Positions 1,664 through 31,296 of a stretch of DNA of 64,000 nt are shown here, in pieces; position 1 is the stretch's first letter; each line of letters starts with the position of its first letter. The notes under the pieces were generated by a model, which was not told the DNA's origin, did no database searches, and saw only the letters and a program-made list of their open reading frames with translations. This stretch comes from Acidobacteriota bacterium (GTDB lineage: Bacteria > Acidobacteriota > CAIWXX01). The stretch covers positions 71,985 to 135,984 of the forward strand of contig JBFMAF010000033.1 of assembly GCA_040755995.1 (NCBI GenBank), written 5' to 3'. The position numbers were made by a program, and so were the translations under genes.

Positions 1664-2125
1664 TCAGGCGACATCGATCAGCGAGGCCGCGATCCGTGCG
1701 GCCTCCTGCGTGATCTCCCGGCACTTCGTTTCACAGTCGTGTTCCATGAAGAACCGCTGTCCCTCGGAGGTGTTCAAGTCGCAGCCGATCAGCTCGCGAC
1801 AGTTGGTCGTGCCAAAGCGCTCGCGGAAACGAGCCAGCAGCAGCTGGACCTTCGCATAGATCGGCTCGAGATCGCCGTCGGGAGTTGAACGCCCGTACCT
1901 GAGCCCGAGCGCCAGGATGGCCCCGCTGAGCGCTCCGCACATGCCGCACGTCCGCGAGACGCCGCTGCAGAAGCCGCTCGCCATACGCGGGATCAGCTCG
2001 CTCTTGATCCCCATCTGCTCGGAGATCGCGAGGAGCACGCTCTCTGCGCAGTAGAACCCGGACCTGAACAGATCACCCGCCCTGCCCGATGCGGAGCATC
2101 CGCCACGAAGCTCGTCCTCAGACAT
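1664..2125 (-). CDS. C-GCAxxG-C-C family putative redox protein
   Basis: GFYCAESV, CGMCGALSG, FGTTNCRELIG and a terminal Cys; start overlaps the stop of the metH fragment. Confidence 0.85.
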   Translation of the reverse strand: MSEDELRGGCSASGRAGDLFRSGFYCAESVLLAISEQMGIKSELIPRMASGFCSGVSRTCGMCGALSGAILALGLRYGRSTPDGDLEPIYAKVQLLLARFRERFGTTNCRELIGCDLNTSEGQRFFMEHDCETKCREITQEAARIAASLIDVA

Positions 2126-3251
2126 CTGCTCCCTCCTTCACGTTGAAGTACCTTGCCTGTGGGTGGTGAAAGACCAGTGCGCTGACGCTTGCCTCCGGGT
2201 CCATCGTGAAGCCTTCGGTGACGCGCACGCCGATGTCTTCGGGCTTCAGCAGCATCCACAGAGTGTCCTCGTCCGAGAGATTCGGGCATGCAGGATAGCC
2301 GAAGCTCACGCGAAGCCCGGTGTAGCTCGCCTGGAACAGCTCCCGCTGCGTGATGTCCGGCTTGTCGGCGATGCCCCACTCGGAGCGAAGTTGCTGGTGG
2401 AGCTTTTCGGCAAATGCCTCGGTCGTCTCCAGCGCCAGTGACTGGAGCGCGTGCGAAAGCACGTACTCGCCGCGCTCCTTGAGCTGCAAAGCCAGCGGCC
2501 GGATCCCCAGACCGCAGCTCACGACGAACATCGCTACGCTGTCGCGGCCGGCCGCCGCGGGCCCGACGTAGTCGGAGATGCAGAGCCCGTCTGGCTCGGC
2601 CTGCCGTGGGAACGTGAACCGCGTGAGCTCCTGATCGGCTTCGTCATATAGGATCAGATCGTTGCCTTCGGAATTCGCAAAGAAGAACTGGACAACACCG
2701 CGGGCCTTCATCCATCCCTGCTCGGCGCGGCTCTTGACATCGCGCACCACGGCATCCAGCTCGCGGTACTTCGCGTCGCCGCTTTCGGCCAGGCGTTCGA
2801 CGCTCCCACGGAGCCCGAGGTGCTTGCCGTAGAGCATCTGATGATTCAGATAGGGCCAGAGCTCGGTGACATCCGCTTTGATGATGCGCCGGGCAAGGGT
2901 CGGGGGGCGCCGCGGTGGCACCTCCGCTATCTTCCGCGAGCGAGCTGCGCCGACTGCGATCGAAGGCGCTGCAGTCGCCCGCGACGCCTGCTCCAGGGAC
3001 GTGGTCTCGGCGGCAATCGACCGCTCCATCCCCGCGCGCTGATCCGGATCGATCAGCCGATTGGCGATGTCCAGACCGCTCATCGCATCCTTGGCATAGA
3101 CCACGGTCGAACCGTACGCGGGGCGGATGCGCGCGTACGTGAACTTCTTGGTAAGCGCGGCGCCGCCGACGACAACCGGTGTCGTGATCCCGGCTGCGCG
3201 AAGATCCTCAACGGTCGTCACCATCTGCTGCGCGGACTTCACTAGAAGCCC
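2118..3251 (-). pseudogene. metH: 5'-truncated second copy of metH (end of B12-binding domain plus AdoMet reactivation domain)
   Basis: Open 374-codon frame, about 89% amino-acid identical (hand count) to the C-terminus of MetH at 18422-21862; homology starts abruptly at GLLVKSAQQM (3251 matches 19555). Confidence 0.85.
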
Positions 3252-6849: not shown

Positions 6850-9188
6850 TCCTCGCCGCCGACCGTCGTGGCTTTCTTCGCCACGACGCGGCCCGAATCG
6901 TCCAGTAGCACGACGCTCGCCGCTGTGCCGATGAGCGCGTCATCTTCGACGAGCAGTGCGGCCTTCCCCTGTTGATCTGTCTGTTTGCGCGAAGCGATAC
7001 TCGAGCCCGGGTCTCCGATTCTGGTCCTGATGTCGACCACCAATGCGGCGTGCGGAGGCTCGATCGCTACGCGGCACCTCATGGCTACCCACTCTACATC
7101 CACGATGCTGGGCGTTGGGCCTGCTCCGGTCTCGCCAGAACTGAACGCGAGATCCGGTACCAGGCATTCCTGGAGGCTGATCCCGCCGTGAGCGTACTCG
7201 TGGCCGCTTCCGAAACAGTGGACTCCCGTCCCGTAGGCAAAGACCTCGCTCGGGTTCCAGTACCAGGAAGAGGTTGGCACTGACACGTGTGCGGTCACCT
7301 TGAGTGTCGCGCAGCGAGACCAGCGGCTCTCAGTGAGGTACTTCGGGAGGCTCATCGCCGGCAGCCCGCCAGGGACGAGCAGCCAGCCGTGGTCTGTCAC
7401 CACACGAACTCGTTTCCAGCCAGCCGAAAGCAGCGACTCCACGCGATCCACCAGGGACACCAGAAGATCCTCGATCCCCGCCGCCACTCCGGCCTGCAAG
7501 TCATGACCGCGCCTGTCGAAGTCTCCGATCTCAGTCCAGCCGCGAGCATCATCCTCCTGCGGCCGACCGACCTCCATCGGCGCCAGGACTTGATATCCCG
7601 CCAGTGCGATCGCCTTGCGAAGTCGTTCCGACGTGAGGCGTTGACCTGCGTGCTCCAGCTCGGGCGCGAAGTCAGCTCCCAGCTCATGCCCGACGATCTG
7701 CGTAGCGATCGGCGAGACGGCAGGTTTCGTGGTCGCCGTCACAGTCGGCACCGGGCACAAGCGCCTTCCCACGACAACTCGCAGCTTGCGCTCGTGCGCC
7801 AGACCCACTAGCCGCTGCGCCACGTCGTATCTCAAAGCATCCACAAAGAGCAGACACGTGCCCGGTTCGCAGCTCGCGACCGACTGAGTATCATCGCGTC
7901 TTGTGGGTAGGGGGTTGCCAGCAACGAGTCTCTGGAAGTGCTCGGCCGAGTCCTGCATCCATGGCAGGTAGACGGACCTCGCTGCGACGGAGAGCGCATC
8001 GAGATCCTCCCGAGACTTCACTTCCGCCAATGCCCGCAGCAGAGCATCGTCGGCCAGCCATCCGGCCTGAGCGTATCGCTCCGCCATGGCTTGCACCGAA
8101 TCGCCGCCGAAGGCGCTACCGGTGTGCTTCGCGAGGGCGGCGAGGTGCGAGATCGCCTTTGCGAGGGGACTTCGCCCGAGCGCCGCCCAGACCCACTGCC
8201 TCCGCTCCGCATGCTGGCTCTCCAGCTCGCCTAGCCGCGCTCGCGCATCCACGGCGCTGGCCCCCTGAAGCTGCCGGAGTGCCTGGCGGAGGTCCTTCTC
8301 CATGTCGTCGTTCTCATCGGGCCAGGTCTCCTTCACGAACAACAGGCCGCCGGGCTTGGCCCGCCGGAGCAGCTCGGTGATGCCGGGATAGAGCTTCGGC
8401 GCTTCGACAAACCTGTCCCACACGGGCCGCCACGCATCGGCCTGCGTGCCCAGACGCTCGCCCGCCACGATTTCCCCGTCGCCCTCAGGGTCGAAACTGT
8501 ATTCGGCTCTGCAGCGTGACCGGAAGGCCGACCAGCGCGCTTGGTCCCACTGCTCGCGAACGCCAGTGGGATCGCTCATCCATTCCAGCAAGTTGCGCGG
8601 CGTGTCTTCGATCATCAGCTTATCGAAATCCTCGGCCTCCAGTCGCTTGCTCCGGAGGCGGGGAAGGGGTGTCACTGCGAGACGCGGAAGAGCACCGCGC
8701 AACGCCTGCTTTGTGTGCTCATCCCTCGCGACATCCAGTCCGAGACCGGCGTCCTCAGAGAGGAGAAATGCCTCGATGGTCCAATCGCGTCCGTTTCGCT
8801 GGCACCACACTGTCCCCCGATACTGCAGCTCGACCATCGGCTTCAGAATGTCAGGACACTCCTCTGCTGCCCGCAGTGTTTGCCGGCTGATCCCGGGCAT
8901 GTACACCACCGGGACTGTCCGTCCAGGCATGGCGACATCGGGCAAGGTTTTCTCCACGATGCACCGGATCCAGATGGCCGGCCCTCGCCGTTGATCGGGT
9001 GCGTAGTCGCCGAGCACGAGCAGCTCCGGCACCATGCTATGCAGCGGTGGAATCAGAGGCTGCCACTGTGCGTCCGCGTCTGTCCAGAGGAGGGCCGCTG
9101 GCGGGACTTCGCCTGGAGCGTGTTTGACGGCCGCACGGAGCGATGCCTGGAGCGCGTCCAGAAGAGTCTTTGGCTCGTCGGCTGCCAT
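6846..9188 (-). CDS. pglZ: BREX phosphatase PglZ (type B-like)
   Basis: LFVDALRYD, PTVTATTK, DRRGH, VVTDHGW and YAHGGISLQE alkaline-phosphatase-fold motifs. Confidence 0.93.
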   Translation of the reverse strand: MAADEPKTLLDALQASLRAAVKHAPGEVPPAALLWTDADAQWQPLIPPLHSMVPELLVLGDYAPDQRRGPAIWIRCIVEKTLPDVAMPGRTVPVVYMPGISRQTLRAAEECPDILKPMVELQYRGTVWCQRNGRDWTIEAFLLSEDAGLGLDVARDEHTKQALRGALPRLAVTPLPRLRSKRLEAEDFDKLMIEDTPRNLLEWMSDPTGVREQWDQARWSAFRSRCRAEYSFDPEGDGEIVAGERLGTQADAWRPVWDRFVEAPKLYPGITELLRRAKPGGLLFVKETWPDENDDMEKDLRQALRQLQGASAVDARARLGELESQHAERRQWVWAALGRSPLAKAISHLAALAKHTGSAFGGDSVQAMAERYAQAGWLADDALLRALAEVKSREDLDALSVAARSVYLPWMQDSAEHFQRLVAGNPLPTRRDDTQSVASCEPGTCLLFVDALRYDVAQRLVGLAHERKLRVVVGRRLCPVPTVTATTKPAVSPIATQIVGHELGADFAPELEHAGQRLTSERLRKAIALAGYQVLAPMEVGRPQEDDARGWTEIGDFDRRGHDLQAGVAAGIEDLLVSLVDRVESLLSAGWKRVRVVTDHGWLLVPGGLPAMSLPKYLTESRWSRCATLKVTAHVSVPTSSWYWNPSEVFAYGTGVHCFGSGHEYAHGGISLQECLVPDLAFSSGETGAGPTPSIVDVEWVAMRCRVAIEPPHAALVVDIRTRIGDPGSSIASRKQTDQQGKAALLVEDDALIGTAASVVLLDDSGRVVAKKATTVGGEE

Positions 9189-9192
9189 GATC

Positions 9193-9489
9193 CTATCCCG
9201 CCACCCCGGAGCTTCTTGGACCGGCCCGCCTCGTCTTCGATCCTGCTGAGTGCCTGTACAACACCTTCAGGACGCTCTGGACGTCGCCGGGCACAGCCGA
9301 CATCCGTTCAATCACCAACGCCTCGGAGAGTCGGGCGTGAATCTTCCGGTTCTGCAGCTCAGTCCGAACGCGTGCAAGGAGTTTCTTGGCATCACAAAGC
9401 TCGAAGCCGTCGCCCCACTCGGCATTCAGGATGCTCGTGGCTTCCCGCGTTGCCTTCACATAGTCACCGCGATACTTCGGGTCGTCCAA
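9193..9489 (-). CDS. Small hypothetical protein or gene remnant between pglX and pglZ
   Basis: TTG start preceded by GGGAGG; 98 aa; fills the pglX-pglZ gap. Confidence 0.45.
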   Translation of the reverse strand: MDDPKYRGDYVKATREATSILNAEWGDGFELCDAKKLLARVRTELQNRKIHARLSEALVIERMSAVPGDVQSVLKVLYRHSAGSKTRRAGPRSSGVAG

Positions 9490-9504
9490 CTGACAGCCTC
9501 CCTT

Positions 9505-12500
9505 TCATCCGGTGCTCTCAGCAGCCCTCTCCCGAGCCTGTCGCTTGGTTGCGACCGTGTAGTGACAGCCGTTGAACCGCTCTCCGGTGAACATCTTCCC
9601 ACCCATGAAATCGAGCATTCGACCATCCCACCCCCAGAACCAGGGGAAATCCGACTGCTTTCGTTCGGGCTCCTTGCCCCGGTCCTTGTCCCACTTGATG
9701 TTTGGTTTCCAGCGCAGCACGCCCGCCCCGGCGCGCCCGTTTGGCAGGTCGGCGGCGAGGAACGGGCGGATGTTCAGCCGCACACCGTCGTTGACGTCAG
9801 GCTCCCAGCCGATCGGCTGCTGATGGAGCGGCTTCCAGCGAACGAAGATGTCGAACGGTGGCTCGCCATCAAGGATTGCCACGAGGCGCTTCTGCAGCTC
9901 CATGGCCGCGACCAGCCGATCCTCGGCTCCTTCCTCGCCTCTCTTCACACCATCATGCTGCCGGGAGATCCAGTCGCCGAGATAGCTGTACGTCAGGCTC
10001 TCCAGGAGCTTCCGGCCCACGCCGTCACCTTCAGCAAGCTTGTGGTAGTTCACCAGCGCCTGGAATCCATCCCGTTTGCGGCCGTCCCAGATGTGCCAGA
10101 TGAATGGCCGGTGATGGAACAGCTTGCAGTGCTCCTCGAAGAAACTGTTCCGCAGCCACTCGTCCAGGTCGCGGTCCGGCTTGATACCGCATGCATGAAG
10201 CACGGCGGCCACCCGGTCTGCCGCCCTATCCTCGCCGCGCAGAGACGGGACACACACGATGCCGTCGGCATCGGCGAACCTGACAAGCTCATCACATCGT
10301 TTCGCCAGCTCGCGCGCACGGGTGCTCAACCGCATGTTCTCATCCAGCTCGGCCGGCCACCTGTAGCCCAGCATCCGCGCGACAGCGACCTGCAACGGCG
10401 CCGCCGACTGCTCCGGCCTCCCATGGAACAACCACTGCGTCGGATCATCACTCTCGGGCTCCGGCAGGCCATGGGGATACTTCTCCGCCGCAACCTTCTG
10501 CCAGTGCGCGATGTCGAACGGGATCTTCACCAGTGTTGCATTCGTAACGTTGGTCTTCTGGTCCACGAGCCTGACGGATGATGCGAAAACCTCGGACGAG
10601 CAGAAGGCCCAGACTGCGGGCAGGCAATCAGGGTCACGGGGGAGGAGCACAGCCACGTTCGTATCGAATGGCTCGCCCGTGTACAGCGAGCTTGGCAGAT
10701 GGCGCATCTGGCGCACCACAACTCCCGTGCGGCCCCACGCCTGTCGTCCGCGAATCGCTGCCCCGATTTCGTCCTTTGCGCTTTCCAACTCTGCGAGCGC
10801 GAGCTTCATCTCGCGCCCTCCAAAGAGCACGGTGAGATCGAATGAGCACTGAAACGGCCTCCAGTCAGGATCGGACCACGCAAGCTCCCAAAACGCCCTT
10901 GTGAAACGGGGCGAATCGGCGGTGGAGATTCCCTGCAGACCTACTGCATACCGCTGCAGCAGGATGCCCACTTCGCCCGTCTCCAAGACGATCCTGGCAT
11001 CGGGATTCCGCAGCTGGGATTCCTGCGGCACGACGAAGAGAGGGGCGGCAGACGCTCCTCGAAGCAATGTGGCCTTCCGTTCCTGGTCCTTGGTGACGGA
11101 GACATCAATGCCAGCATAGCAGTGCTCGCTCCCAGGCTTGCCCATGCTGATGATGGTCAGGGCGGTTGTGGCTGCCCACCAGTTCATGCCGCGGAATGCG
11201 TTTGCCCCCAGGCGAACCACGAAGTTCCAGGTGCATTCCCTCAGCAGGCGAGTTCGGAGGTGTCTGTACGTGGTCAAGAAAAGGCAGTTCTGTGGAGTCA
11301 CTATACCGACCGTGCCGGCGGCCGATACGTGCCGAAGAGCCGTGGACAGGAAAACGGTGGACAGATCCGCCTTGGCGTCAGGCTCATGGTCCGAAGCCCA
11401 CTGCCGCAGAGCGGAGCCATGCTTGAGTCTCGCCAGATAGGGCACGTTGGTGATCACAAGGGTGTACTTAGAGGTCAGAATGGCTGCTGCCCTTGCCATG
11501 CCGTGGGCCGCGACAGCCAGCTCGTGCTCTGTGTCGCCGGCGGACTCTGCACGCAACGCCAAATCGAGGAGTGGCTCGAGTTCGCGGTAGTCCGCAGCAT
11601 ACAAGCCACCGCTGGCGCGCCGCGGGTCGATCAAGCTTCCGAGCTCGGGGGCCTGCTGGAAGAGGTCGTAGAGGTTCTCGAGCCCGTTCTTGATCGCGTC
11701 AGACAGCAGTGACTCCCGGGTCTCGAAGAGGTCCTCGCGAACCACGGGCATTCCGCCCTCGCTCGCCGCGCGCTCGGCGATCTCGAGCCACTCTTGCTTC
11801 GTGGCGCGCGGCGCGAGGCCAGTGCACGCGATGTTGAGCGACGGGAGCGGCCGGAAGCCTGCGAGCTTCCACGCGGTGAAGGCGAGGTTGAACGCTGCGA
11901 TTTGCGTGCATCGCGGATCGATCTCGAGACCGTGCAGATTCTGGCGCAGGACAGCGTCGACTGCATCGGAGAGCGAGAGCCCTTCTTCGTGCATCCTCAG
12001 TCGCACCAGCAGATCGAAGCCCGCGACCAGGAAGTGGCCAGAGCCGCAACAAGGGTCGAGCACCTTCAACTCGGCCGCGCGCTTGGGCCATCCCTCGAAC
12101 GCGCCGGCCGCAGGCCTCCATGAGCCGCCTTTGCCATCCGGCCCGCGGACGAACCGCAGGTAGTCGAATGAGTACCCGCCCGCTGCGGTTAGCGCGACGG
12201 CTTTGCGAAGATTTTCCTCGCTGCCTGCGCTGTCGGCCAGTGCCGGGTTCGTTGCAAGAACCTCTCCCGCATGCCATGCGCCAACGGTGTTGTGCAGGAG
12301 GAACAGCACCATGTAGTGCTCGGTGAAAAGCTGCGTCACGGCCGGCAGCGTCTCGCCCGTGATCTTCTGACCACTCTTGTTGACCTCGTCCTTCCTCTTG
12401 CTCTGCCAGAATTGATAGACCCAGCCGAGCGCATCGTCCGCCTTGAAGACCGACGGGGTGAGACCGGCGAGCAGTTGCTCCAGCTTGACTCGATGCTCGC

Positions 12501-12966
12501 GCGCCAGCGCCACCTGGAGCACCGGGTCATCGGGCCGGAAGATCTGGGGCAGCATCTTCTGGGCGTATCGGCTGGCGTGCGTCCAGAGGTCGGTGCCTGC
12601 CTCCTTCGCCAACTCCTCGCACTCCTGCAGGCTGATGGCCACGCCGCTGGAAGGCTCGATGAGTAGATCGTTCTCTGCGAGGAACCGGGCGAAGAGCATC
12701 CGATGCCACTGTTCGTATGCGCATTCGTGGACGAGATGGTCGATCCCGAGGCTCCCTCGACGATCCTGCTCGTCTCCGAGCTGCCTAGCATGCGCGCGCA
12801 ATTGATTCCGCAGCCGGCGCTCTTCGGCTGTTTGATGCGGGTAGGGTTCGTGGTGGTGAACCGCCAATGTCTCGAGAGCGGCCCGCGCCCCTGCCTCGGC
12901 CACGTCGCGCGCCTGAACGACAGTTCGCTCAAGCTTGCTCCGGAGGTCAGCCGCAAGAGGTGGCAT
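9505..12966 (-). CDS. pglX: BREX adenine DNA methyltransferase PglX (BrxX)
   Basis: LGWVYQFW, PAVTQLFTEHYMV, motif I VLDPCCGSGHFL, motif IV TNVPY, C-terminal DVNDGVRLNIRPF; position in the operon. Confidence 0.92.
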   Translation of the reverse strand: MPPLAADLRSKLERTVVQARDVAEAGARAALETLAVHHHEPYPHQTAEERRLRNQLRAHARQLGDEQDRRGSLGIDHLVHECAYEQWHRMLFARFLAENDLLIEPSSGVAISLQECEELAKEAGTDLWTHASRYAQKMLPQIFRPDDPVLQVALAREHRVKLEQLLAGLTPSVFKADDALGWVYQFWQSKRKDEVNKSGQKITGETLPAVTQLFTEHYMVLFLLHNTVGAWHAGEVLATNPALADSAGSEENLRKAVALTAAGGYSFDYLRFVRGPDGKGGSWRPAAGAFEGWPKRAAELKVLDPCCGSGHFLVAGFDLLVRLRMHEEGLSLSDAVDAVLRQNLHGLEIDPRCTQIAAFNLAFTAWKLAGFRPLPSLNIACTGLAPRATKQEWLEIAERAASEGGMPVVREDLFETRESLLSDAIKNGLENLYDLFQQAPELGSLIDPRRASGGLYAADYRELEPLLDLALRAESAGDTEHELAVAAHGMARAAAILTSKYTLVITNVPYLARLKHGSALRQWASDHEPDAKADLSTVFLSTALRHVSAAGTVGIVTPQNCLFLTTYRHLRTRLLRECTWNFVVRLGANAFRGMNWWAATTALTIISMGKPGSEHCYAGIDVSVTKDQERKATLLRGASAAPLFVVPQESQLRNPDARIVLETGEVGILLQRYAVGLQGISTADSPRFTRAFWELAWSDPDWRPFQCSFDLTVLFGGREMKLALAELESAKDEIGAAIRGRQAWGRTGVVVRQMRHLPSSLYTGEPFDTNVAVLLPRDPDCLPAVWAFCSSEVFASSVRLVDQKTNVTNATLVKIPFDIAHWQKVAAEKYPHGLPEPESDDPTQWLFHGRPEQSAAPLQVAVARMLGYRWPAELDENMRLSTRARELAKRCDELVRFADADGIVCVPSLRGEDRAADRVAAVLHACGIKPDRDLDEWLRNSFFEEHCKLFHHRPFIWHIWDGRKRDGFQALVNYHKLAEGDGVGRKLLESLTYSYLGDWISRQHDGVKRGEEGAEDRLVAAMELQKRLVAILDGEPPFDIFVRWKPLHQQPIGWEPDVNDGVRLNIRPFLAADLPNGRAGAGVLRWKPNIKWDKDRGKEPERKQSDFPWFWGWDGRMLDFMGGKMFTGERFNGCHYTVATKRQARERAAESTG

Positions 12967-13179
12967 CGATGAGTCTCCTCAGTTGGGACCTACCGCAGTG
13001 ATATGGCGCTTCATGTCGGTGCTCCCCATATCTCCAAAGGCCGCGGATCCAGCTGGCGTCCCCGAACCGATGAGGGTCACAATTGCTCTTCTTTGGATAT
13101 CAATCATTTGAGGGCCGTTGGCATCCTGGTACGACCATCCCAGTCACATATCAACTGCTGAGAGGTCATCGCGCGCATC

Positions 13180-16100
13180 TCACGAAATGACGATGGGACC
13201 GTCCGCCACTTTGTCGAGCAGGTCGCGCTCGATGTTCGTGACCCAATCTTTCACCTCTGCAGGGGTCTTGAGCGTCCCACTGGTGAGATGCACTCGCTGT
13301 GTCTTCGGCTCGAGCGATTTCGCTGCTGCAAGAGCCGCATCTATGAATTGCTGGGGCAATGCGCTTGTTCGCATCTTCCATGAGCCCAGCGAGCACTCAT
13401 CGAGGGACCTCAGCAGGCTTACGTCGTCGCTCACATCGAGCGTCGGGGCCTCCGCAATCCCCACGGCCGCGAGTATCTCTTCTCGTTGAGCCGGCGATAG
13501 CCTCTGCCAACTCTCGCTCGCGTCCAGCCTGCGCTTCTCTGTGCTGAACAGGGTCTCGTATTCATTGTGCGCCTTGTTCAGAGCGGGGCGCAGAATGGAA
13601 GCGACTCCCTTCTGGATGGCGGGCACTGGGTCGCTGGCATCGAGCAGACGCCGGTCGGCGCGTACGGCGTCCGTCTGTTTCAGGAGGTCAAACGAATCGG
13701 GTAATCCGGAGGCGTGGCGGAGCAATCTACAAAGCATTTCCCAGGCCGGCCTCCTCTTCGCGGCATGTTCGGCTGCAGCGCTCCAGGCTTTGACGTGCTG
13801 TTCCAGGCCGTCGCCCTGCCTGACCATCGCCGCGAGCTGTTCGTTACCTGTGAGGCCTCGAAGGGCCTCGATGTGCGTCGTCGAGGGTCTGGGTGGCATC
13901 GGCGGATCCCCGCCGGCCTGATCCGCGAGGTCGAGCAGCACCGCGAGGAATCGATCGGCTTGTGTCGACTCCTCGCCGGGCTTGCACGCGACTGAAGCGC
14001 TCTGGAACAGTTTGCGCAGTTTGATGCGTTGGCCAACATCCAATGTGGCCGCCTCGACGCGGAGCTCACTCATCGCGATCTTGGCCTGGTCGAGCTGGCC
14101 CGGCTTGAGTTGCACGCCACCGTGACCCACGCGCACTTGACCCGCAGTGTGGAGCACTATGAGCGCGCCGTCCACTGCGTCCCGTGGCCAACCGTACGGG
14201 CTGTTTTCGAAGAAAGAACGGACCTCTTTGCCCCTCTTGCCGGCCCCGATGGCCGAGCGAATCGCAGAGCACACAGGGTGCTTCTCCGGCTTGTCGTGCC
14301 AATCCACTACCTGCAGCGCGCTCTCGTCGCCGCTCCTCGCTCGGCTGATGACACCGTCCCACTTGTCGTGATCTGCGACACGGAAGTGGGGAAAGAGGCG
14401 ATCAAGAGATGCCTCTGCAGCGGTTCTCACTTTCTCCACGAAACTGAGCTCCAGACGTTCGGCACCACCACCCTGCAGGACCTTGCTGTTCTCTATTACC
14501 TCACGGAGGATAGCATTCCGTCGGACCTCAGCCTCCCCCCTCCGCGTGGTCATTGCATTGAACGCCTCACGTCCCTCGTCCGTGTTCGGCGTCCCCTTGA
14601 AATCGATCGTTGACCTCGCAGCCTCTGCGTCTACGATCGCCTGCTTCAGGTCTTCGGCTCGGGACTTGGACACGAAGACGTAAACGATAGGGCTCTCGGT
14701 TCCGGCGGCTCGCGCATCATTAAGGACTCGGCTCTCGCTCTCGCCCCAGCCGTCTCGGACCCAGACCGGGATCTCGTGCCCTTCTCCTGTAGGTGCGTCC
14801 CCGCCGAACTGCAGGACGAGCTTGCGCGGGGCCTTGCTCCTCCCATGCACCAGCCTGATGCCCCCGATGGCGTCACTGATCGCCGCGGCTATCAGCGCCG
14901 AACGTTTGTTGGAGATACCCGACTCGTCGCCGGCCAGTCGCGACTGGCGGTTGTGGAACTCACGGTCCCACTCGCTGCCCTCGCGCGTCTGAAGACTGTA
15001 GCCATCGTCAAGCTTGATCAGCTTCCCGTCGCGAACCAGCTGTTCGAGGACGAGAGGCACATCCTTGCGGAGCAGCGTGCCATCACTGCCCAGGTCGCTG
15101 ACAAGCAAGTCCGAGAGCATCTCGGGGGTGGCGCTCACGCCGACGGCACCGGCCTGTCCTCGGGGCAGCTTGCGGATCAAGAAGATTAATCCGCAGAGCC
15201 GGCGCGCCAGCTTCCCGGATGGCGTGCCGTCATCGAGCTTTTGGATGGTCTGGTCGCTCTCGCGCAGAAGAACGCCAGTGCGGAGAAGGTCCGTTTGTAG
15301 TTGCCCAAAAATGAAGTCGCCAGGTACGACCGTTCCGAGCGGTTGCTCGGCTGTGTCCCGCACGGCGTCATGCACGATGCGCAGCTGCGTGCGGAGTTGT
15401 GCCGTAGTGCCGGGGACGTCGACTGCCCTCAGTGAATGCTCCCAGAACCGCCGGCGCACGGGGAGAAGCGGGTAGTCATCGACCAGGATTGTCTGATCGT
15501 CGACTCGCGATGCTATGGCAGTCCCGGCCAGCTGTCGATCGATCTCACCTGCATGGTGATCAAGACACTCCTTGACCGCCTTGACCCGATCAGCCTTCTT
15601 CGCCAAAACAACCCGGCGTGTGACGGTCTCCACATCGAGGTCAGACAGCTCAACCGAGATGGTGAAGCGTCCCCGGAGTCGCTGCAGCATCGGCACGCTC
15701 CCGGCGAGGGCCGTCTGGCCCGCGCCGATGAGCATCACGCGACTGTCGAGCTGCTTGCAGAGCGCCTCGGCCACCTCCTGGACCTCCGCCGAACGCTGGG
15801 CGCTATCGCCGATGAAGAGCTGTACTTCGTCCAGCACCACCACGGTGCAGGGTACACGACCATCGACCGACAGGATCTCGCGCGTCAGTCGAGTGAACTC
15901 CATAGTCGAGATCTCGTGGACATCCCGGAACTGCGCCTCCAGTGTGGCGTGCACCTGGTTGATGTCGGGGGCAAAGGTGGGGTCGGCATCCAGGATCGCC
16001 CTCGCGAGCACCGGACTGACATACAGGTCACTGAGCTCCCGAAGGAAGTCTCTGCCCTCGGCCTCAACTGCTCTCCGAACCTTCTCGTAGTTGCCGTTTC

Positions 16101-16623
16101 TCATCAGCCAGAGGCAAAAGCGAGTCTCAGGCAGGGTTTCCGGGAGGCCCTTCGATCGCGAGATGATGCTGAGGATGGTCAGCCGCACGTTGCTGCCCTC
16201 GCCAGAAGGTAGCTTCCCCGAAACGGCGTGGAGGCCACCGCACCTCTTGCCGAGAGTTCCCAGCTCCCTTAGCAGGTCTTGCACTTCCAACGGTAGCTGT
16301 GCGAGCCCACGTGCGGTGGCTCCGTCCGCGAACATCGTGTCCACCCACAGGTGGCGCAGCATCTTTAGCAAGTGGGACTTCCCGCAGCCGTAAAAGCCGC
16401 TGATCCATGCCGCCGGCTGGACAGTCGAGTCCACGCTGCCGATATAGGACTCGAGGATGCGAATCATACCCTCCTTGTACTGGCCCTCGCACACGAAGTG
16501 CTCCAGCTCGTAGCGGAGCGTATCGATCTCGTTTGGCGTCCGTGTCTCCTCGACGGTGGCCACACCGTCGTTCAACAGCCTGCTGGTGGAGGGGTCGCGC
16601 TGGAATATCTCTCTGTTCTTCAT
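13180..16623 (-). CDS. brxC: BREX P-loop ATPase BrxC
   Basis: RYELEHFVCEGQY, Walker A WISGFYGCGKSH, Walker B VVLDEVQ, SPYGWPRD; 1147 aa. Confidence 0.93.
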   Translation of the reverse strand: MKNREIFQRDPSTSRLLNDGVATVEETRTPNEIDTLRYELEHFVCEGQYKEGMIRILESYIGSVDSTVQPAAWISGFYGCGKSHLLKMLRHLWVDTMFADGATARGLAQLPLEVQDLLRELGTLGKRCGGLHAVSGKLPSGEGSNVRLTILSIISRSKGLPETLPETRFCLWLMRNGNYEKVRRAVEAEGRDFLRELSDLYVSPVLARAILDADPTFAPDINQVHATLEAQFRDVHEISTMEFTRLTREILSVDGRVPCTVVVLDEVQLFIGDSAQRSAEVQEVAEALCKQLDSRVMLIGAGQTALAGSVPMLQRLRGRFTISVELSDLDVETVTRRVVLAKKADRVKAVKECLDHHAGEIDRQLAGTAIASRVDDQTILVDDYPLLPVRRRFWEHSLRAVDVPGTTAQLRTQLRIVHDAVRDTAEQPLGTVVPGDFIFGQLQTDLLRTGVLLRESDQTIQKLDDGTPSGKLARRLCGLIFLIRKLPRGQAGAVGVSATPEMLSDLLVSDLGSDGTLLRKDVPLVLEQLVRDGKLIKLDDGYSLQTREGSEWDREFHNRQSRLAGDESGISNKRSALIAAAISDAIGGIRLVHGRSKAPRKLVLQFGGDAPTGEGHEIPVWVRDGWGESESRVLNDARAAGTESPIVYVFVSKSRAEDLKQAIVDAEAARSTIDFKGTPNTDEGREAFNAMTTRRGEAEVRRNAILREVIENSKVLQGGGAERLELSFVEKVRTAAEASLDRLFPHFRVADHDKWDGVISRARSGDESALQVVDWHDKPEKHPVCSAIRSAIGAGKRGKEVRSFFENSPYGWPRDAVDGALIVLHTAGQVRVGHGGVQLKPGQLDQAKIAMSELRVEAATLDVGQRIKLRKLFQSASVACKPGEESTQADRFLAVLLDLADQAGGDPPMPPRPSTTHIEALRGLTGNEQLAAMVRQGDGLEQHVKAWSAAAEHAAKRRPAWEMLCRLLRHASGLPDSFDLLKQTDAVRADRRLLDASDPVPAIQKGVASILRPALNKAHNEYETLFSTEKRRLDASESWQRLSPAQREEILAAVGIAEAPTLDVSDDVSLLRSLDECSLGSWKMRTSALPQQFIDAALAAAKSLEPKTQRVHLTSGTLKTPAEVKDWVTNIERDLLDKVADGPIVIS

Positions 16624-17189
16624 CGCTCAACAGTCCCGCCGCGGAGGGTGATCGGGACGGCCAGGTAGTTCCAACCATCCCGAGCATCGAGCAGCCGATA
16701 ATTGTTGTTGTCGAATTCGCCGGGAAAGAACAGGACGAGCCTGCCCCGGATGTCACGGTCAGTCTCCTTGAGCACGAGTGATACCTTCGTGAACCCGTAT
16801 AGGCATCCTACACCATAAGCGGCAACTACGGTGTTCTCGTCCACCTCAGGCGCGATGAGTGCGTCGCGAAGCTCCGCGGCCGCGGCGCGCACGAAGTCGC
16901 TCTTCAGCTTCAGACCAAGGGCGGCGGGCTTCCGGAAGTACGGGTCGCGATACTCCATCGAAGCCATCCATCGCGCGAAGGTCCCGGTGAAGTCGACAAG
17001 CTTCCAGCCGTGCCCAGACTGCCGCGTCGCCATCTCGTAGAGCTCCAGCTTCGCACGCAGTTTTCGCTCGTCCGTTTTGTCGTATACGACGAAGATGGTC
17101 TTTTGTGCACCCGCAAGGTCCCTCTGCCAAGGCGCGGAGACGTGGCTCTGGTAACGGTTGGCCAGCTCTTCAATTCGTCCCATGGACAT
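16620..17189 (-). CDS. brxB: BREX protein BrxB (DUF1788-like)
   Basis: GVGCLYGF and LVLFFPGEF...YRLLD motifs; directly upstream of and overlapping brxC. Confidence 0.85.
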   Translation of the reverse strand: MSMGRIEELANRYQSHVSAPWQRDLAGAQKTIFVVYDKTDERKLRAKLELYEMATRQSGHGWKLVDFTGTFARWMASMEYRDPYFRKPAALGLKLKSDFVRAAAAELRDALIAPEVDENTVVAAYGVGCLYGFTKVSLVLKETDRDIRGRLVLFFPGEFDNNNYRLLDARDGWNYLAVPITLRGGTVER

Positions 17190-17994
17190 GCTTCCTTTCT
17201 TGCTCGGTCAGCATCCTGAGGGGTGCCACATCCACAATCCCGCCCGAAACCCTGAGGTCTATGAGGCCGATGCGTTTGGCATCCGTTGCCAGGGCGATGA
17301 GCTCGTCGCCGGTCGAATCGAGGCTCTTCGTCCAGAGAGTCTCGAATAGGAGTGCACCCCGCACGCCGAGGGCGTATCCGAGCAGCAGAGCAAAGGCAAC
17401 GACGGTGGGGGTAGGGCTCACGGTGCGGCGCACCTTGTGACTTCGACCTTCGAGATGCCCTGACTGGCTCCAGGACGATGCCGCGTTGCGCACGACCTTG
17501 TCCAGTACCGCTTCGTTGAAACGGTCGTGCGTTCCTTGGCCCACGGCTTCAGCGAACGCGCGGCGGGCAAGCTCCTCGCCGGGACGCAGGTGGGCGATGA
17601 CCGGGGCTGTAAGCCGCAGGAGGGGGTCGCGCGCCAGGGCAAGCAGGAGCGCCATCAGCGGCTGCCCCTGTTCCTCGTTTTGCCAAAGCTCCCGCATGAC
17701 GCGGAACAGGGGCACACTCGGATCGAGCGCATACAGCTCACCCAGACGCTGATCGGTCAGCCTGCGTGTAGCGAGCGTAGTCTTGCCGAGGCAGTTATGC
17801 TCGACGATCAGCTCGCGGTATTCCGCACGACTAGCCGTCGGCGCAGCAACTCGCAATAGTGTCGAGAGCTCACTCAGCATCATCGTGCGACTAGTGTGCG
17901 TGCCCTTTTCGCCCGAACGGAATCCGAGAAGAACGGCGGTAGGAGCATCGAGCTCGGCTGCGGCAATCGCGTCGAAGGGCGGCAACCGTGTCAC
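17170..17994 (-). CDS. brxA: BrxA-like first gene of the BREX operon
   Basis: Helical protein with IVEHNCLGKTTLATRR and SWSQSGHL; occupies the brxA position. Confidence 0.65.
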   Translation of the reverse strand: MTRLPPFDAIAAAELDAPTAVLLGFRSGEKGTHTSRTMMLSELSTLLRVAAPTASRAEYRELIVEHNCLGKTTLATRRLTDQRLGELYALDPSVPLFRVMRELWQNEEQGQPLMALLLALARDPLLRLTAPVIAHLRPGEELARRAFAEAVGQGTHDRFNEAVLDKVVRNAASSWSQSGHLEGRSHKVRRTVSPTPTVVAFALLLGYALGVRGALLFETLWTKSLDSTGDELIALATDAKRIGLIDLRVSGGIVDVAPLRMLTEQERKHVHGTN

Positions 17995-18421: not shown

Positions 18422-21862
<3,441 letters not shown>

Positions 21863-26650: not shown

Positions 26651-29614
26651 TCACGGAGCCGGTCGTAGCGGCGAGGTGAGCCCCCCGGCGCTCTGCTGGC
26701 GGATCTCCGCCTCTATAGCTTCCGCCTGCGTCTGATCGCCCTCGAACAGCTCCGACCTCGCGGTCGCGCCGTCAGGCGCGTGCTTCATCTCGATGAAGAG
26801 CGGGAGCTTCTCCAGCAGGAAGACGGCGGCCAGCCCCATGGAATCGAAGCATCCTTCGCGGATCAGCGCTTCCATCGGACGCCGGTGGACCACTTCGTGA
26901 TCCACGGCGAGGACGAAGTCCGTGAATCCCTTGAAGCGATTCACTCGGTCGCGCGCCCGCATGACCTCTTCGATCACATGCTCGCCGATGCCAGGCACGG
27001 TCTCGAAGCCGAGTTGGATCTCGCCGTCCCTCGCCTCACAACGAGCCGAGCTCAGGTTGATGTCCGGTGGGTTGACACGGATGCCTTTCCTTTCGCACTC
27101 CAGGATCAGCGATTCGAGGCCGAGTCCCTCGCCGGCCGTTGAGGCCCTCAAGGCTGCTCGGAAGGGTGCGGGCAGATGGGTCTTCATAGCCGAGATGCGC
27201 GAGGGCAGCAGCGCCGCGCCTTCCTCGGCGCGGAAGCTCAGCGATGCCGCCATGAATCGCACGGGGTGGTGCGCTTTCAGATAGGCCAGCCAGTACACGA
27301 GCAAGGCGCCCGCGGTCACCGAGGCCTTGCTGAGAAGCCTCGGCGCCGCATCGAGGAGCATCTCGAGCAGAGCGTCCGAGTGCCTTTTCAACCTGCTGCC
27401 CAGGACGGCCCTCTTGAAGCCCGCCGCCAGCCGGTCGGGCCGGCCCCCAGTCTCGCCACCACTCAGGTGCACATCTCTCTCCTCTTCCCTCCGCGCCAGC
27501 GCGGCCTTCACGATCTCGCTCCTCCGGACGCTCCGATTCGTAAACGCCTCCAGCATCGCCTCCACCTGTTCGTGGAAGACCACGAACCCGCCGGTCTCGG
27601 CCAGGATCGAAGCGAGCTCGGGGAGCTTTTCCGGCGCCTGCTGCCCCGCAAGTATTGCCGCCTCGATGTCAGCGGCGAGATTCGGAGTCGACGCCGGCCT
27701 GAGCGTGGCGATCCGTCCGAGTGCTTTCAGCGCAATGAGCTGCTCGAAGGACTGTGGTCTGACCCGGAGAGCTCTGAACGGCGGCCCGTCAAGCGGCGTG
27801 AGCCCGGCGGTTTCACCGTTCGCGATCAACGAGTAGGCCGCCGGATCGTCGGTGCGGTCGGGCGCTGGTTCGCGCATTATGTGGAGCACCCCCAGGGCAT
27901 TGCTTCCGGGGAATTCGATCCGCAGAAAGCCGAGGCGGTCGAGCGTCTGAGGGGCGAAGTGAGACACAAGTCTTCCGTCCGGGCCGGGGCTGGAAGGGAG
28001 CGCCTCGTGCAGCGGGCCGGCAGACACCACCACCGAGTGATGGGGCATCGCATGGTGCGGAACCGATTCTACCTTCAGCGCGGCATCGAGCACCTCTCTC
28101 GCCTTCGACCCGGCCGGAGCGAGCTCGGCGGCGCGCGACGCAAGGGATCGAAGAGGAGCCTTGGGAGGAAGCGCCTTCAGAAGCGGCTCGACCTCGCGAA
28201 TCTTCACGCCCAGAGCCCTGGCGCATTCTCGGATGGCCGTGTGTGCGTGAAACGGCACGAGCTCCTCGACCATCGCCACCCGGTCCGTCCCGTGCCGTGC
28301 GGCCAGGTGGTCGACGAGCGCGCGTCGTCCGACGTTGGACACGTCGATCGCCATGTGAATGAGATGATCGCCGGAGGTGGCGGGGATGTCGAAGTACAGG
28401 CCGCACTCGACCGGGTCGACGTCGGTTATTCTCAGCGCGTGCGCCACGAGGCTGGAAGAGGCGATCCCCCTGCCGGCCGCATATGGGATGCCGAGCGCGC
28501 GAGCGTGCTCCGCCGCGTCATGCAGGATGAGAAAGTAGCTCTCCATGCGACGCTCGGTGATGGAGTCGAGCTCGGAGTCGAGCCGCCGGACGTACTTCAA
28601 GGATGCCTTGCCTCGGGCTTGCAGACCGGCGCGGGCCAGTTGCACCAGCAGCGCGGCCTCGGTTGTGCCAGGAGGTGTCGGGAAATGGGGCCTCGAACGC
28701 GGCGCGCTCTCCAAACGGAAATTGCATCGCTCCGAAATTCGCACCGTCGCGGCCAGGGCGTCCGGGAAATCGGCGAAAAGCTCCGCCATCTCCTCGTACG
28801 GGCGGAGGTAATAGTTGGAGTTGTAGTGATTGAGCTCGCGAATCTCCTGCAGAGGCGAAGTGCCCTGCCGCCGCAAGACCAGCTCAGTCTCGTCCGGCTC
28901 ATCGGCCGCGATAGGCCCGGCCCGCTCCTGGGCGATGGCCAGGAGCAGCTCCTGCCGGTAGAAATCCGAAAAACCTGCGAAGTGGGAGTCGTTGGTCACG
29001 ACGAGCTGCAGGCCGAGTCTCCGCGCGAGAGCGATGACCTCCGGCGCATAAACCCGCTCCTCGGTCTTCCCATGATCGTGAAGCTCGACGTAGAAATTGT
29101 CTCTGCCGAAGATCTGCGCGTAGGCGTCGGCGACGGCCGCGACAGCGTCCCCGCGTCCCTCGATTATGAGCCTCGGGATGTGCCCGCGGAGGCACCCGCT
29201 CAGGGCTATCAGGCCTTCCGTGTGCGAGTGGAGCCTCTCCCAGGGCACGTAGCGGACGCGAGTGCCGGGGAGTGGGGTCGAGGTGGCAAGCAGGCGGCAG
29301 AGGTTCGCGTAGCCCTGCTGGTTCTTGATGAGCACCGGGAGATGATAGAGATTGAACTGCTCGGCACCGCCGGGGATGCCCTCGGCAGGCTCGTTTGCGC
29401 GGACATAGAGCTCGCACCCGAGGACCGGCTTGATCCCTGATGCCAGCGCTTTCTCGAAAAAGGCCACGGCCGCGTGCATGTTGCCGTGGTCGGTGAGCGC
29501 GAGCGCACCGAAACGCAGGCGGACCGCCTGCTCGATCAGCTCGTTCACCCGCGCAGCGCCGTCATACCACGAGTACGTCGAGTGATTGTGCAGGTGAACA
29601 AACGGGACGCGCAC
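26651..29614 (-). CDS. DNA polymerase III alpha (DnaE)-like protein with intact PHP domain, degenerate polymerase active site, no OB/C-terminal domain
   Basis: PHP motifs HLHNH, DG, TDH, GCE, YHL, SGC, TNDSH; PDIDID position reads IHMAID, KxD position reads RIE; PPDINLS and HhH (VPGIG) retained. Confidence 0.85.
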   Translation of the reverse strand: MRVPFVHLHNHSTYSWYDGAARVNELIEQAVRLRFGALALTDHGNMHAAVAFFEKALASGIKPVLGCELYVRANEPAEGIPGGAEQFNLYHLPVLIKNQQGYANLCRLLATSTPLPGTRVRYVPWERLHSHTEGLIALSGCLRGHIPRLIIEGRGDAVAAVADAYAQIFGRDNFYVELHDHGKTEERVYAPEVIALARRLGLQLVVTNDSHFAGFSDFYRQELLLAIAQERAGPIAADEPDETELVLRRQGTSPLQEIRELNHYNSNYYLRPYEEMAELFADFPDALAATVRISERCNFRLESAPRSRPHFPTPPGTTEAALLVQLARAGLQARGKASLKYVRRLDSELDSITERRMESYFLILHDAAEHARALGIPYAAGRGIASSSLVAHALRITDVDPVECGLYFDIPATSGDHLIHMAIDVSNVGRRALVDHLAARHGTDRVAMVEELVPFHAHTAIRECARALGVKIREVEPLLKALPPKAPLRSLASRAAELAPAGSKAREVLDAALKVESVPHHAMPHHSVVVSAGPLHEALPSSPGPDGRLVSHFAPQTLDRLGFLRIEFPGSNALGVLHIMREPAPDRTDDPAAYSLIANGETAGLTPLDGPPFRALRVRPQSFEQLIALKALGRIATLRPASTPNLAADIEAAILAGQQAPEKLPELASILAETGGFVVFHEQVEAMLEAFTNRSVRRSEIVKAALARREEERDVHLSGGETGGRPDRLAAGFKRAVLGSRLKRHSDALLEMLLDAAPRLLSKASVTAGALLVYWLAYLKAHHPVRFMAASLSFRAEEGAALLPSRISAMKTHLPAPFRAALRASTAGEGLGLESLILECERKGIRVNPPDINLSSARCEARDGEIQLGFETVPGIGEHVIEEVMRARDRVNRFKGFTDFVLAVDHEVVHRRPMEALIREGCFDSMGLAAVFLLEKLPLFIEMKHAPDGATARSELFEGDQTQAEAIEAEIRQQSAGGLTSPLRPAP

Positions 29615-29674
29615 TCGATGCCTCCCTCACGAAGTCCTGGCGAGGGGTGGCCCCGTACCGTGGATCGCGTAGAG

Positions 29675-29700
29675 AGTAGAGAGTGGAGAGTAGAGAGTGG
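29675..29700 (+). repeat. Heptamer tandem repeat AGAGT(A/G)G, 26 bp shared with 41466-41491
   Basis: AGTAGAGAGTGGAGAGTAGAGAGTGG; exact reverse complement at 41466-41491. Confidence 0.85.
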
Positions 29701-29760: not shown

Positions 29761-31296
29761 CTACTCCCATTCAATAGTAGAGGGCGGCTTCGGGGTGACG
29801 TCGTAGACGATGCGGTTGACGCCTCTGACTTCGTTGACGATCCGCGTCGAGATTCGATTGAGCAGCGCATGGTCGATTCGTACCCAGTCTGCGGTCATCC
29901 CGTCGAGGCTCTCGACGGCTCGGATCGCGACGACGTTTTCGTGTGTGCGTTCGTCGCCCATGACACCGACGGTCTTGACCGGGAGAAGCACGGCGAATGC
30001 CTGCCAGATCGATCCGTAGAGCCCCGCAGCCTTGATCTCATCGGTGACGATCGCGTCGGCCTCCCGCAGCAGGCGCAGCCGCTCGCTGGTCACCTCGCCA
30101 ATGATCCGCACGGCCAGACCCGGCCCCGGGAACGGCTGCCGGTCGACGATCGAGGAGTCGATCCCGAGAAGGCGGCCGACCTGGCGGACCTCGTCCTTGA
30201 ACAGCTCCCGGAGCGGCTCGACCAGTCTCAGCTTCATCCGTCTCGGCAGACCGCCGACGTTGTGATGGCTCTTGATCATGGATGAAGGCCCGGCTATCGG
30301 TACACTCTCGATGACGTCAGGATAGGTCGTGCCCTGGGCGAGGCAACGGACGTCCCGTATCTCCGCCGCCGTCCGCTCGAACAACCGTATGAACTCGCGC
30401 CCGATGATCCTTCGCTTTCGCTCGGGGTCCTTCACCCCTTTGAGTTTGCGCAGGAAGCCCTCGGACGCATCCACCATCTTTACGGGAATACGGAGCTTGC
30501 CGACGAACACGTCGCGCAGCCTCGCCGCCTCGTTCTTGCGAAGGAGCCCGTTGTCGACGAAGACGCACCTGAGCCTGCTCCCGATCGCGCCGTGAATGAG
30601 CACGGCGGCGACAGAGGAGTCGACGCCGCCGGAAAGCGCGCAGATCACCTTGCCCTCGGCTACGTCGCTGCGGATACGATCGCTGGCCTGTCTGATGAAA
30701 TCTCCCATTGTCCATCGACTCTTGATCCCGCAGATCTTGCGCACGAAGTTTTCCAGAATCTTCCTCCCGTTCGGCGTGTGCACGACTTCGGGGTGGAACT
30801 GCACTCCGTAGAGTCTGTCCAAGCGGTTCTCGAACGCGGCGAAGCGCGTGCTCGTCGTCGTAGCCACTGCGCGAAAGCCGCAGGGAAGCGCCAGAATGGA
30901 GTCGCCGTGACTCATCCAGACGTTTTGCGTGGGAGGCAGATCAACGAAGAGAGACGAAGCACTGTCGCCGACGTGGAGCTGAGCCGGGCCGTATTCGCGG
31001 CGGTGTGCCCTGGCGACCTTCCCGCCGAGCTCATGCGCCATGAGCTGCGCTCCGTAGCAAATCCCGAGAATCGGGATGCCCAGCTCGAAAAGCCCCGCAT
31101 CCACCTGCGGCGCACCCTCTCCGTAGACGCTGCTGGGCGAGCCGGACAGGATCAGCCCGCCGGGATTTTCAGCACGGATCCGCTCCGGCGCGCACGAGCA
31201 GGGCAGAATCCTGCTGAACACCTCCAGCTCTCGAATCTTGCGCGCGATGAGCTGCGTGTACTGAGATCCGAAATCGAGGATGAGGATGCTGTCCAT
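29761..31296 (-). CDS. guaA: GMP synthase (glutamine-hydrolysing)
   Basis: [45 protein letters not shown]; true start at MDSILIL (31296). Confidence 0.98.

Follow-up and report, generated by a model that had tools for sequence, protein, structure and literature searches.

A DnaE1 with lost polymerase residues and an intact PHP site, and the question of which polymerase replicates the chromosome in a family of Acidobacteriota

How does a bacterium replicate its chromosome when the only DnaE1 found in its genome lacks the catalytic residues of a polymerase? The question is raised by a gene, here called dnaE1*, in a stretch of 64,000 nucleotides (hereafter the window; positions 71,985 to 135,984 of contig JBFMAF010000033.1, assembly GCA_040755995.1) from a member of the Acidobacteriota, whose genome we designate G000. 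A sequence-only reading of the window had described a polymerase-dead DnaE with an intact PHP site, with the implicit premise that it was an extra copy beside a working DnaE1. The description stands, but the premise does not: judged from sequence and locus, dnaE1* is the DnaE1 (Pol III alpha) native to this lineage, stripped of its polymerase residues and of the tail that docks on tau. Because the three genomes of the family (G000, 99.84% complete; G001, 100%; G002, 98%; from three different genera) yielded no active DnaE1 or PolC, the real finding is a rewired replisome. On the sequence evidence we slightly favour (probability of roughly 0.55) a scenario in which a B-family polymerase (PolB) became the replicase and DnaE1 was kept as a clamp-bound PHP 3'-5' exonuclease. 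The gene and its parts are the following.

26651..29614, minus strand: dnaE1*, 987 aa; polymerase-dead, PHP-intact, without OB fold or tau-binding C-terminal domain
29621..29625, minus strand: ribosome-binding site GGAGG, 6 nt 5' of the GTG start of dnaE1*, read directly from the sequence
28715..29602, minus strand: PHP domain, residues 5-300; nine metal ligands HHDHEHCDH, unchanged in 5/5 orthologues
28343..28360, minus strand: eroded palm motif IHMAID (PDIDID in DnaE1); first catalytic Asp replaced by His420, second by Ala422
27905..27922, minus strand: RIEFPG (KMDFLG in DnaE1); third catalytic Asp replaced by Glu567, with D or E in the orthologues
26834..27085, minus strand: tandem HhH DNA-binding motif, residues 844-927, from the Pfam domain search
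26744..26758, minus strand: internal beta-clamp-type motif RSELF, residues 953-957, followed by a short helix at the expected start of the OB fold

The reading frame of dnaE1* has 987 codons, a GTG start, and no internal stop, and its protein matches the PHP, Pol III alpha NTPase, finger, and HhH domains of Pfam, with no OB fold among the matches. We compared its motifs with those of DnaE1 by sequence alignment to the solved structures from Mycobacterium tuberculosis (7pu7/5lew), whose catalytic residues are D421, D423, and D587 (PMC5636811, in the part available). The alignment does not recover the three acidic residues. MPDIDIDF is replaced by LIHMAIDV, which turns D421 into H420 and D423 into A422 while retaining the noncatalytic D424, and KMDFLG is replaced by RIEFPG, which turns D587 into E567. 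Other polymerase motifs are also eroded (FERFLNPER to FDIPATSGD, GRGS to GRGI, and [YF]GFNKSH to RLLSKAS). The nine PHP ligands are all present (H9, H11, D18, H43, E68, H91, C141, D209, and H211) and fit the published "active" pattern HHDHEH[C/H]DH (PMC12926913). In these respects, and in the unbroken frame with its ribosome-binding site, the retained HhH and clamp-like motifs, and the end before the OB fold, the sequence-only reading was accurate. An AlphaFold model (mean predicted local distance difference test 82, predicted template modelling score 0.77) suggests that palm, thumb, and fingers keep their strands and helices; the loop before the eroded palm motif (412–417) has low confidence and varies in length among orthologues.

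A homologue search with dnaE1* ranks first four orthologues of 914–940 aa with open frames and 45–49% identity, and the next matches are full-length DnaE1 at no more than 33% identity. Both DxD aspartates are gone in all five dead proteins (HxA, HxA, HxS, RxA, and HxS), whereas PDxD is retained in 115/115 of the remaining DnaE hits among the matches listed. This loss is thus neither chance nor an assembly error. The nine PHP ligands are retained in 5/5, and all five proteins end soon after a predicted clamp-type motif (QSQLF or QSELF in the four orthologues, RSELF in G000), without OB fold or C-terminal domain. A separate gene for these two domains was not found in G000 with an OB/C-terminal domain profile against the six-frame translation, where the sole match was the OB fold of DnaE2. 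The PHP is the best-conserved domain among the dead orthologues (60–63% identity, against 43–49% in palm/thumb). Of the columns that do not vary across 10 canonical DnaE1s, 23/32 in the PHP, 20/83 in palm/thumb, and 13/55 in the fingers are retained by the dead proteins. The ratio of nonsynonymous to synonymous substitution rates (dN/dS) of the G000–G001 pair, a crude estimate as dS is near saturation in this pair and saturated in the others, is 0.24 in the PHP, 0.28 in palm/thumb, 0.38 in the fingers, and 0.34 in the HhH, and that of PolB is 0.12. A recent pseudogene is ruled out by the four diverged orthologues, their open frames, and dN/dS values of 0.24–0.38, and the earlier suggestion of a maintained gene rather than a decaying copy is upheld. 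The dead family seems small because a profile search over 1.84 billion representatives at 50% identity gave a single cluster (P0006, 1,633 bits), after which scores fall to 638 bits, those of DnaEs of ordinary length. A metagenome scan with generic PHP motifs, covering 3 of 64 parts, returned canonical DnaEs only, with both motifs kept in 59/59 of those long enough.

Is there a working DnaE1 elsewhere in these genomes? The sequence-only reading had called for a canonical dnaE to be confirmed in the genome; we looked for it, and none was found in G000, where the full DnaE1 profile on the six-frame translation matches only DnaE2 and dnaE1*. PF07733 matches exactly two proteins in each family genome, DnaE2 and the dead DnaE1, and neither another DnaE1 nor a PolC was found in any of the three. 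The same approach finds canonical DnaE1 in 37/38 other relatives and in 377/401 genomes of the phylum with completeness of at least 95% (these tallies include the unpublished genomes G025, G052, and G155). Outside the family, 21/398 phylum genomes (about 5%) fall below the strict DnaE1 threshold. The five of these that were examined all possess a DnaE1 with intact PDIDID, missed because of divergence, a frame split, or a contig break. One further genome, G032, has only DnaE2 when examined locally, probably through an assembly gap. We also considered genus g128, with 10 listed misses, as a second lineage lacking DnaE1, and rejected it, since the three genomes checked have a divergent but catalytically intact enzyme. 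The DnaE1 of this genus (G189, G239, and G384; L273–L275) has open frames of 1,270–1,315 aa, diverges before the catalytic motif (TDPDRSEYPDIDID), and falls under the strict threshold in at least 10 genomes. Separately, G005 and G023 (L137 and L138; family f4) have a canonical DnaE1 with a ruined PHP site, and these Acidobacteriota therefore need another proofreader.

The genomic context indicates the origin of dnaE1*. Its immediate upstream neighbour is a marker of the ancestral dnaE1 locus:

29761..31296, minus strand: guaA (GMP synthase)

The dead gene lies in the order guaA-dnaE*-accA in G001, guaA-dnaE* in G000, and dnaE*-accA in G002. Canonical dnaE1 follows guaA and/or precedes accA in 6 of 10 fetched loci, with both neighbours in 5 of the 10, and guaA adjoins it in 14 of 30 short loci. 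Because dnaE1* occupies the guaA-dnaE1-accA slot and no other DnaE1 or PolC was found, it appears to be the family's own dnaE1 and no spare paralogue; an extra-paralogue reading was discarded for want of a second DnaE1. Its best NCBIfam match is DnaE1, with a score of 550 against a cut-off of 1,002 bits. Assignment of the window protein to DnaE2/ImuC was also rejected, as the protein is the opposite of that group in clade, polymerase activity residues, PHP state, and lexA/imuB linkage. Between guaA and the start of dnaE1* (window positions 29660–29700) there are short tandem repeats of AGAGTAG/AGAGTGG, and similar small repeats lie upstream of the gene in G001.

Other parts of the family's replisome have changed as well. 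DnaX is about 378–385 aa long and ends just past domain III (555–645 aa in 6/6 relatives), and the gene runs into ybaB at the two loci where that side was read. A profile search of G000 found no tau C-terminal domain, and a leave-one-out control recovered it in 6/6. A split or frameshifted tau was considered and rejected, as the dnaX-ybaB gap is just 170–290 nt or so in G001 and G002 and the genome-wide search of G000 has no tau C-terminal match. Tau contacts DnaB and the C-terminus of alpha through its domains IV and V (according to the available part of PMC12593628); since both these domains and the alpha C-terminal domain are lost, neither side of the alpha-tau contact remains. Also missing is the polymerase domain of PolA (0/3 family genomes, against 5/5 phylum controls). 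Pol I is reduced to a solo 5'-3' exonuclease with open frames of 306–366 aa (854–1,297 aa in 10 relatives); the two copies read terminate in QGDLF or QSGLF. DnaB, DnaG, and DnaN are present, and the clamp retains its TDGHR, FPxY, and C-terminal MP motifs. The family's beta clamp (dnaN of G000 on contig C23, L080; L078 and L079 for the others) diverges fast, with 50–56% identity at a DnaG identity of 62–68%, compared with 53–74% for the clamp in controls and 73–80% in the Lindowbacteria-type genomes described below; this is possibly an adaptation to a new polymerase. As for further candidate replicases in G000 (7.7 Mb), there is no PolA domain, a tblastn search with ImuB gave no second Y-family match, the separate PolX-PHP gene has an intact DxD, and the DEDDh matches are generic and unlinked to replication genes, while LigD-type, PrimPol, and protein-primed polymerases were not searched for. 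As three near-complete genomes yielded no active DnaE1/PolC, the chromosome would have to be replicated by either PolB or DnaE2.

Each family genome encodes one B-family polymerase of about 812 aa, in G000 on contig C23, which also bears dnaX and dnaN. No erosion is seen in its ExoI-III motifs or in polymerase motifs A and C, and motif B has the sequence KILANAH[FY]G. In 16/16 members of the clade the C-terminus is Q[LM]xLF (QLSLF in the family), a predicted clamp motif close to the consensus QL[S/D]LF (PMC3919608, in part). Its closest named nonbacterial relatives are from Thermoplasmatota (40–43% identity), to whose PolB the bacterial clade is sister (tree support 0.995). In the PDB it matches Pol delta and Thermococcales PolB best (about 1e-51), ahead of E. 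coli Pol II (7e-22). By sequence, PolB seems to fit group B4 as described in the available part of PMC7544198. Full-length matches occur in 3/401 genomes of the phylum, and these are exactly the dead-DnaE1 family; 36 others weakly match other PolBs. Seven of the 16 members (the family's P0122–P0127, and P0133) have an acidic thumb-loop insertion at residues 700–726 with an SLF/TLF-like core, absent from the Lindowbacteria copies, which might make another contact with the clamp or with a partner. P0133 may represent a third lineage.

The other candidate is DnaE2, the sole intact C-family gene of the family, found in 3/3 genomes in a lexA-imuB-dnaE2 cassette (on contig C42 in G000). It keeps PDIDVD, KIDLLG, the OB fold, and QxGLF, has a ruined PHP (NHETER-RR), and lacks the tau-binding C-terminal domain. 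The ImuB-like protein of the cassette has eroded catalytic motifs. In all three genomes, promoter boxes of the TTGACT..TATATT type are overlapped by a CTTACGC-N4-CTTACGC repeat, which is a putative LexA operator. The repeat occurs in 3/279 loci and in none of the other 276. A looser form has three occurrences in G000, none before polB or dnaE1*, and no cassette-type repeat lies upstream of polB. Between imuB and dnaE2, G001 and G002 have a small open reading frame of about 150 aa (L037:10538-11002 and L036:4703-5161) that is not in G000; the G002 copy has no Pfam match.

A second lineage with the same PolB bears on the choice between the two candidates. Among 21 genomes compared around G041, the PolB clade is present in four (G041–G044, two of which are labelled Ca. 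Lindowbacteria; their completeness is unstated) and in 0/17 of the other relatives. None of the four, but 15/17 relatives, have a polymerase domain of PolA, which is thus absent from all seven PolB-bearing genomes (three of the family and four Lindowbacteria-type). DnaE2 was not found in any of the four, each of which has a single DnaE. The polymerase domain of this DnaE scores 151–185 bits, against 284–370 in 16/17 relatives (the 17th being a partial match). Between Lindowbacteria-type genomes, DnaE1 is less conserved in palm/thumb (45–54% identity) than in the PHP (62–69%), at a DnaG identity of 66–71%, the same trend as in the dead proteins, and 5/5 control pairs show the opposite (palm/thumb 65–82%, PHP 48–74%). 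PolB is the most conserved replication protein measured in these genomes (79–82%). The relaxation of the DnaE1 polymerase thus tracks PolB even without DnaE2, which is the main reason why we rank PolB above DnaE2 as the replicase. G041, G044, and G043 encode one more PHP domain of the DnaE kind, whose ligands appear intact (L117:4542-7055, L118:5002-7584, and L119:4667-6862), in a protein that lacks a polymerase domain and joins the PHP to thumb-like remnants and to a C-terminal part of unrelated sequence. The available part of the supplement of PMC12926913 has no match to "Lindow".

We therefore propose, with the same slight leaning as above, that this free-living family, with genomes of 5–8 Mb, abandoned Pol III, and that an archaeal-type, Pol delta-related PolB equipped anew with a beta-clamp motif stands in for both Pol III and Pol I in a replisome without tau, with DnaE1 as proofreader. 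The ancestor would have acquired a Thermoplasmata-related PolB, whose C-terminus is now QL[SGRN]LF, the transfer being presumably in this direction. PolB may then have made the Pol I polymerase domain redundant, with only the flap nuclease kept. As PolB took over bulk synthesis, the DnaE1 polymerase would have drifted, a stage presumably represented by Lindowbacteria, which still have the aspartates, the OB fold and C-terminal domain, and a long DnaX. In the family of G000, the DnaE1 polymerase would subsequently have died and the alpha-tau contact been lost on both sides. DnaB, DnaG, beta, and a gamma-only loader are still there, and PolB would work on beta without a tau tether. The dead DnaE1 would hold the primer end through its thumb, HhH, and clamp motif while the PHP trims mismatched or blocked 3' ends, to the benefit of PolB or of the proofreading-less DnaE2. 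Taken separately, a role of the dead protein as a clamp-bound 3'-5' editing nuclease is probable, because polymerase-dead PolX with an intact PHP is an efficient exonuclease (PMC9226535, in part) and because of the primer path of M. tuberculosis DnaE1: there, the primer is thought to approach the PHP site of the clamp-bound enzyme from the side of the clamp (PMC5636811, in part). Entry of the primer from that side would account for the retention of thumb, HhH, and clamp motif next to a palm that is dead.

Several observations weigh against this scenario. The Lindowbacteria-type DnaE1 keeps its catalytic aspartates and PHP (the third aspartate lies outside the partial G043 copy), OB fold and C-terminal domain are seen in the DnaE1 of G041 and G044, and DnaX of G041 has 511 aa; since the same PolB coexists there with a possibly active DnaE1, PolB may be a substitute for Pol I only. 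PolB also has an exonuclease of its own, so that a PHP proofreader is less needed, and its motif B reads NAHFG in the family (6/6) and NAHYG in the other 10 members, not NSxYG. The PolB donor is not proven, because the bacterial clade is sister to, and not nested in, the Thermoplasmatota sample. In the DnaE tree (FastTree, without the partial or intein-bearing rows of G043, G022, and G031), the dead clade lies on the DnaE1 side on a long branch, its nearest kin are not resolved, and it is not joined with the Lindowbacteria clade. The G000 protein has R where the clamp motif has Q, the family assemblies are fragmented (56–350 contigs), and E. coli forks are about 20-fold slower without tau coupling (a review, in part). 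Finally, the palm of DnaE2 is 88–89% identical between family genomes, above all five control pairs (69–85%), and its crude dN/dS is 0.17, against 0.12 for PolB.

This last point belongs to the most serious competing explanation, that DnaE2 is the replicase, or one of them, with the dead DnaE1 as its PHP proofreader in trans on the other beta-clamp pocket and PolB replacing only Pol I. It explains the kept PHP neatly: a DnaE2 with intact polymerase motifs, OB fold, and clamp motif, present throughout the family, would have its ruined PHP complemented exactly by the dead protein, and its lack of a tau-binding domain fits the gamma-only DnaX. Trans proofreading is on record for B. subtilis DnaE3 by PolC (PMC12926913). 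Yet dnaE2 lies in a mutasome cassette with a conserved operator-like repeat over its promoter and was nonessential in all genetic studies to 2013 (PMC3919608, in part), and the same DnaE1 drift occurs in Lindowbacteria that have no DnaE2. Part of its high identity accompanies a lower dS (0.96, against 1.2–1.55). We consider this explanation unlikely on balance. The PolB scenario could also be right about the replicase and wrong about the nuclease, the PHP metals being structural or serving another phosphoesterase activity (e.g., pyrophosphate removal) in a clamp- and DNA-binding accessory. A pyrophosphatase or stabilising role has been proposed for PHP domains (PMC5636811, in part), only 42 of 67 PHP columns invariant in eight canonical DnaE1s are kept in all five dead proteins, and the wedge hairpin and lid region differ from the canonical ones. 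We find this improbable: the nine ligands are invariant although the polymerase to be stabilised is dead, unneeded ligands are readily lost (as in the DnaE1 of G005 and G023), and the PolX precedent favours a nuclease.

A normal DnaE1, e.g., a foreign copy on an unbinned replicon, may have been missed in all three assemblies, the dead gene being an accessory paralogue. The fragmentation of the assemblies, the 21/398 other phylum genomes that miss the strict threshold, and G032 with only its DnaE2 lend this some credit. It would nevertheless have to be missed in 3/3 genomes from three genera while the dead gene sits in the ancestral locus and DnaX lacks the domain that would bind a normal DnaE1, and the misses examined elsewhere come down to divergence, frame splits, or contig breaks, so that we judge this very improbable. 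Still harder to believe is that the dead protein remains a polymerase with a re-wired active site made of D/E424 and D/E567. These two positions are conserved as D or E in 5/5 proteins, and the palm fold is predicted to persist in the model. However, the two DxD positions are free to vary (H/R and A/S), the protein has lost the GS motif, the FERF arginines, the RR/RK pair of the fingers, and NKSH, only 20 of the 83 invariant palm/thumb columns survive, and the loop 412–417 is of low confidence and variable length.

Elsewhere in the window, a complete BREX type 1-like defence locus (brxA, brxB, brxC, pglX, pglZ, and brxL) occupies positions 4795–17994 on the minus strand. metH and a near-copy of its 3' part lie on opposite sides of it (2118–3242 and 18422–21862, both minus strand), as if the BREX island had been inserted with a partial duplication of metH.

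Surveys of about 2,000 and of more than 3,000 complete genomes report a C-family Pol III alpha in every bacterium (PMC3919608, in part, and PMC12926913); the later one specifies replicative Pol III alpha, and bacterial PolB and DnaE2 are called nonessential in these sources. In the literature searched, mostly outside subscription journals, we found no report of a bacterium with a dead DnaE1 or a PolB replicase. As a system, and as judged from the genomes, the family would thus be a bacterium without active Pol III alpha of the DnaE1/PolC type, for which we found no precedent in print. Whether PolB or DnaE2 is the replicase, the family would be an exception to the rule that Pol III replicates the chromosome of every bacterium. 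If PolB is, bacteria would have their first replicase from outside the C family, and a swap of replicases between domains would have a living example, with Lindowbacteria as a half-way stage of the takeover and the dead-DnaE1 family as a late one. Such swaps have long been invoked to explain the unrelated polymerases of bacteria and of archaea/eukaryotes and are central in models of early evolution, but have so far only been inferred. The idea becomes directly testable because proteins of the late and the intermediate stage can be expressed and reconstituted. The system also offers what may be a replisome that naturally works without tau, a PHP proofreader that acts by itself, and, among the B-family polymerases with proofreading, an uncharacterised group.

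How does this system compare with known ones? The dnaE1* protein shares with DnaE1s that have an active PHP (M. tuberculosis, 5lew/7pu7; T. aquaticus, 2hpi) the domain order PHP-palm-thumb-fingers-HhH-clamp motif, the nine-ligand PHP, and the ancestral locus, and it matches the solved structures with an E-value of about 1e-92. Unlike them, it lacks two catalytic aspartates, the nucleotide-binding motifs, the OB fold, and the C-terminal domain, and is the only DnaE1 found in its genome; as a protein it is, by sequence, a DnaE1 descendant that fails the polymerase criterion. Our working analogy for it is noncanonical PolX (PMC9226535, in part), also polymerase-dead with a PHP 3'-5' exonuclease kept, although PolX is a dispensable family X repair enzyme and here the essential replicase is affected. 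The family PolB resembles its sister, group B4 of Thermoplasmatota (PMC7544198, in part), with Pol delta and other archaeal PolBs as next relatives. It differs in being encoded on bacterial chromosomes and in the loss of the long tail with an LxDF-type end; the available part of that survey names bacterial groups G1–G3 and no bacterial B4. With E. coli Pol II and other bacterial PolBs it has in common the membership of family B, the exonuclease, and a C-terminal clamp motif, and Pol II forms alternative replisomes with DnaB that run slowly on beta in vitro (a review, in part). Pol II is nonetheless distant from the family PolB and is described as a nonessential accessory (PMC12926913). The family's lexA, eroded ImuB-like protein, and DnaE2 with a dead PHP match the lexA-imuB-dnaE2 mutasome cassette, whose usual companion is an active DnaE1 (PMC12926913), whereas here the cassette holds the only intact C-family gene.

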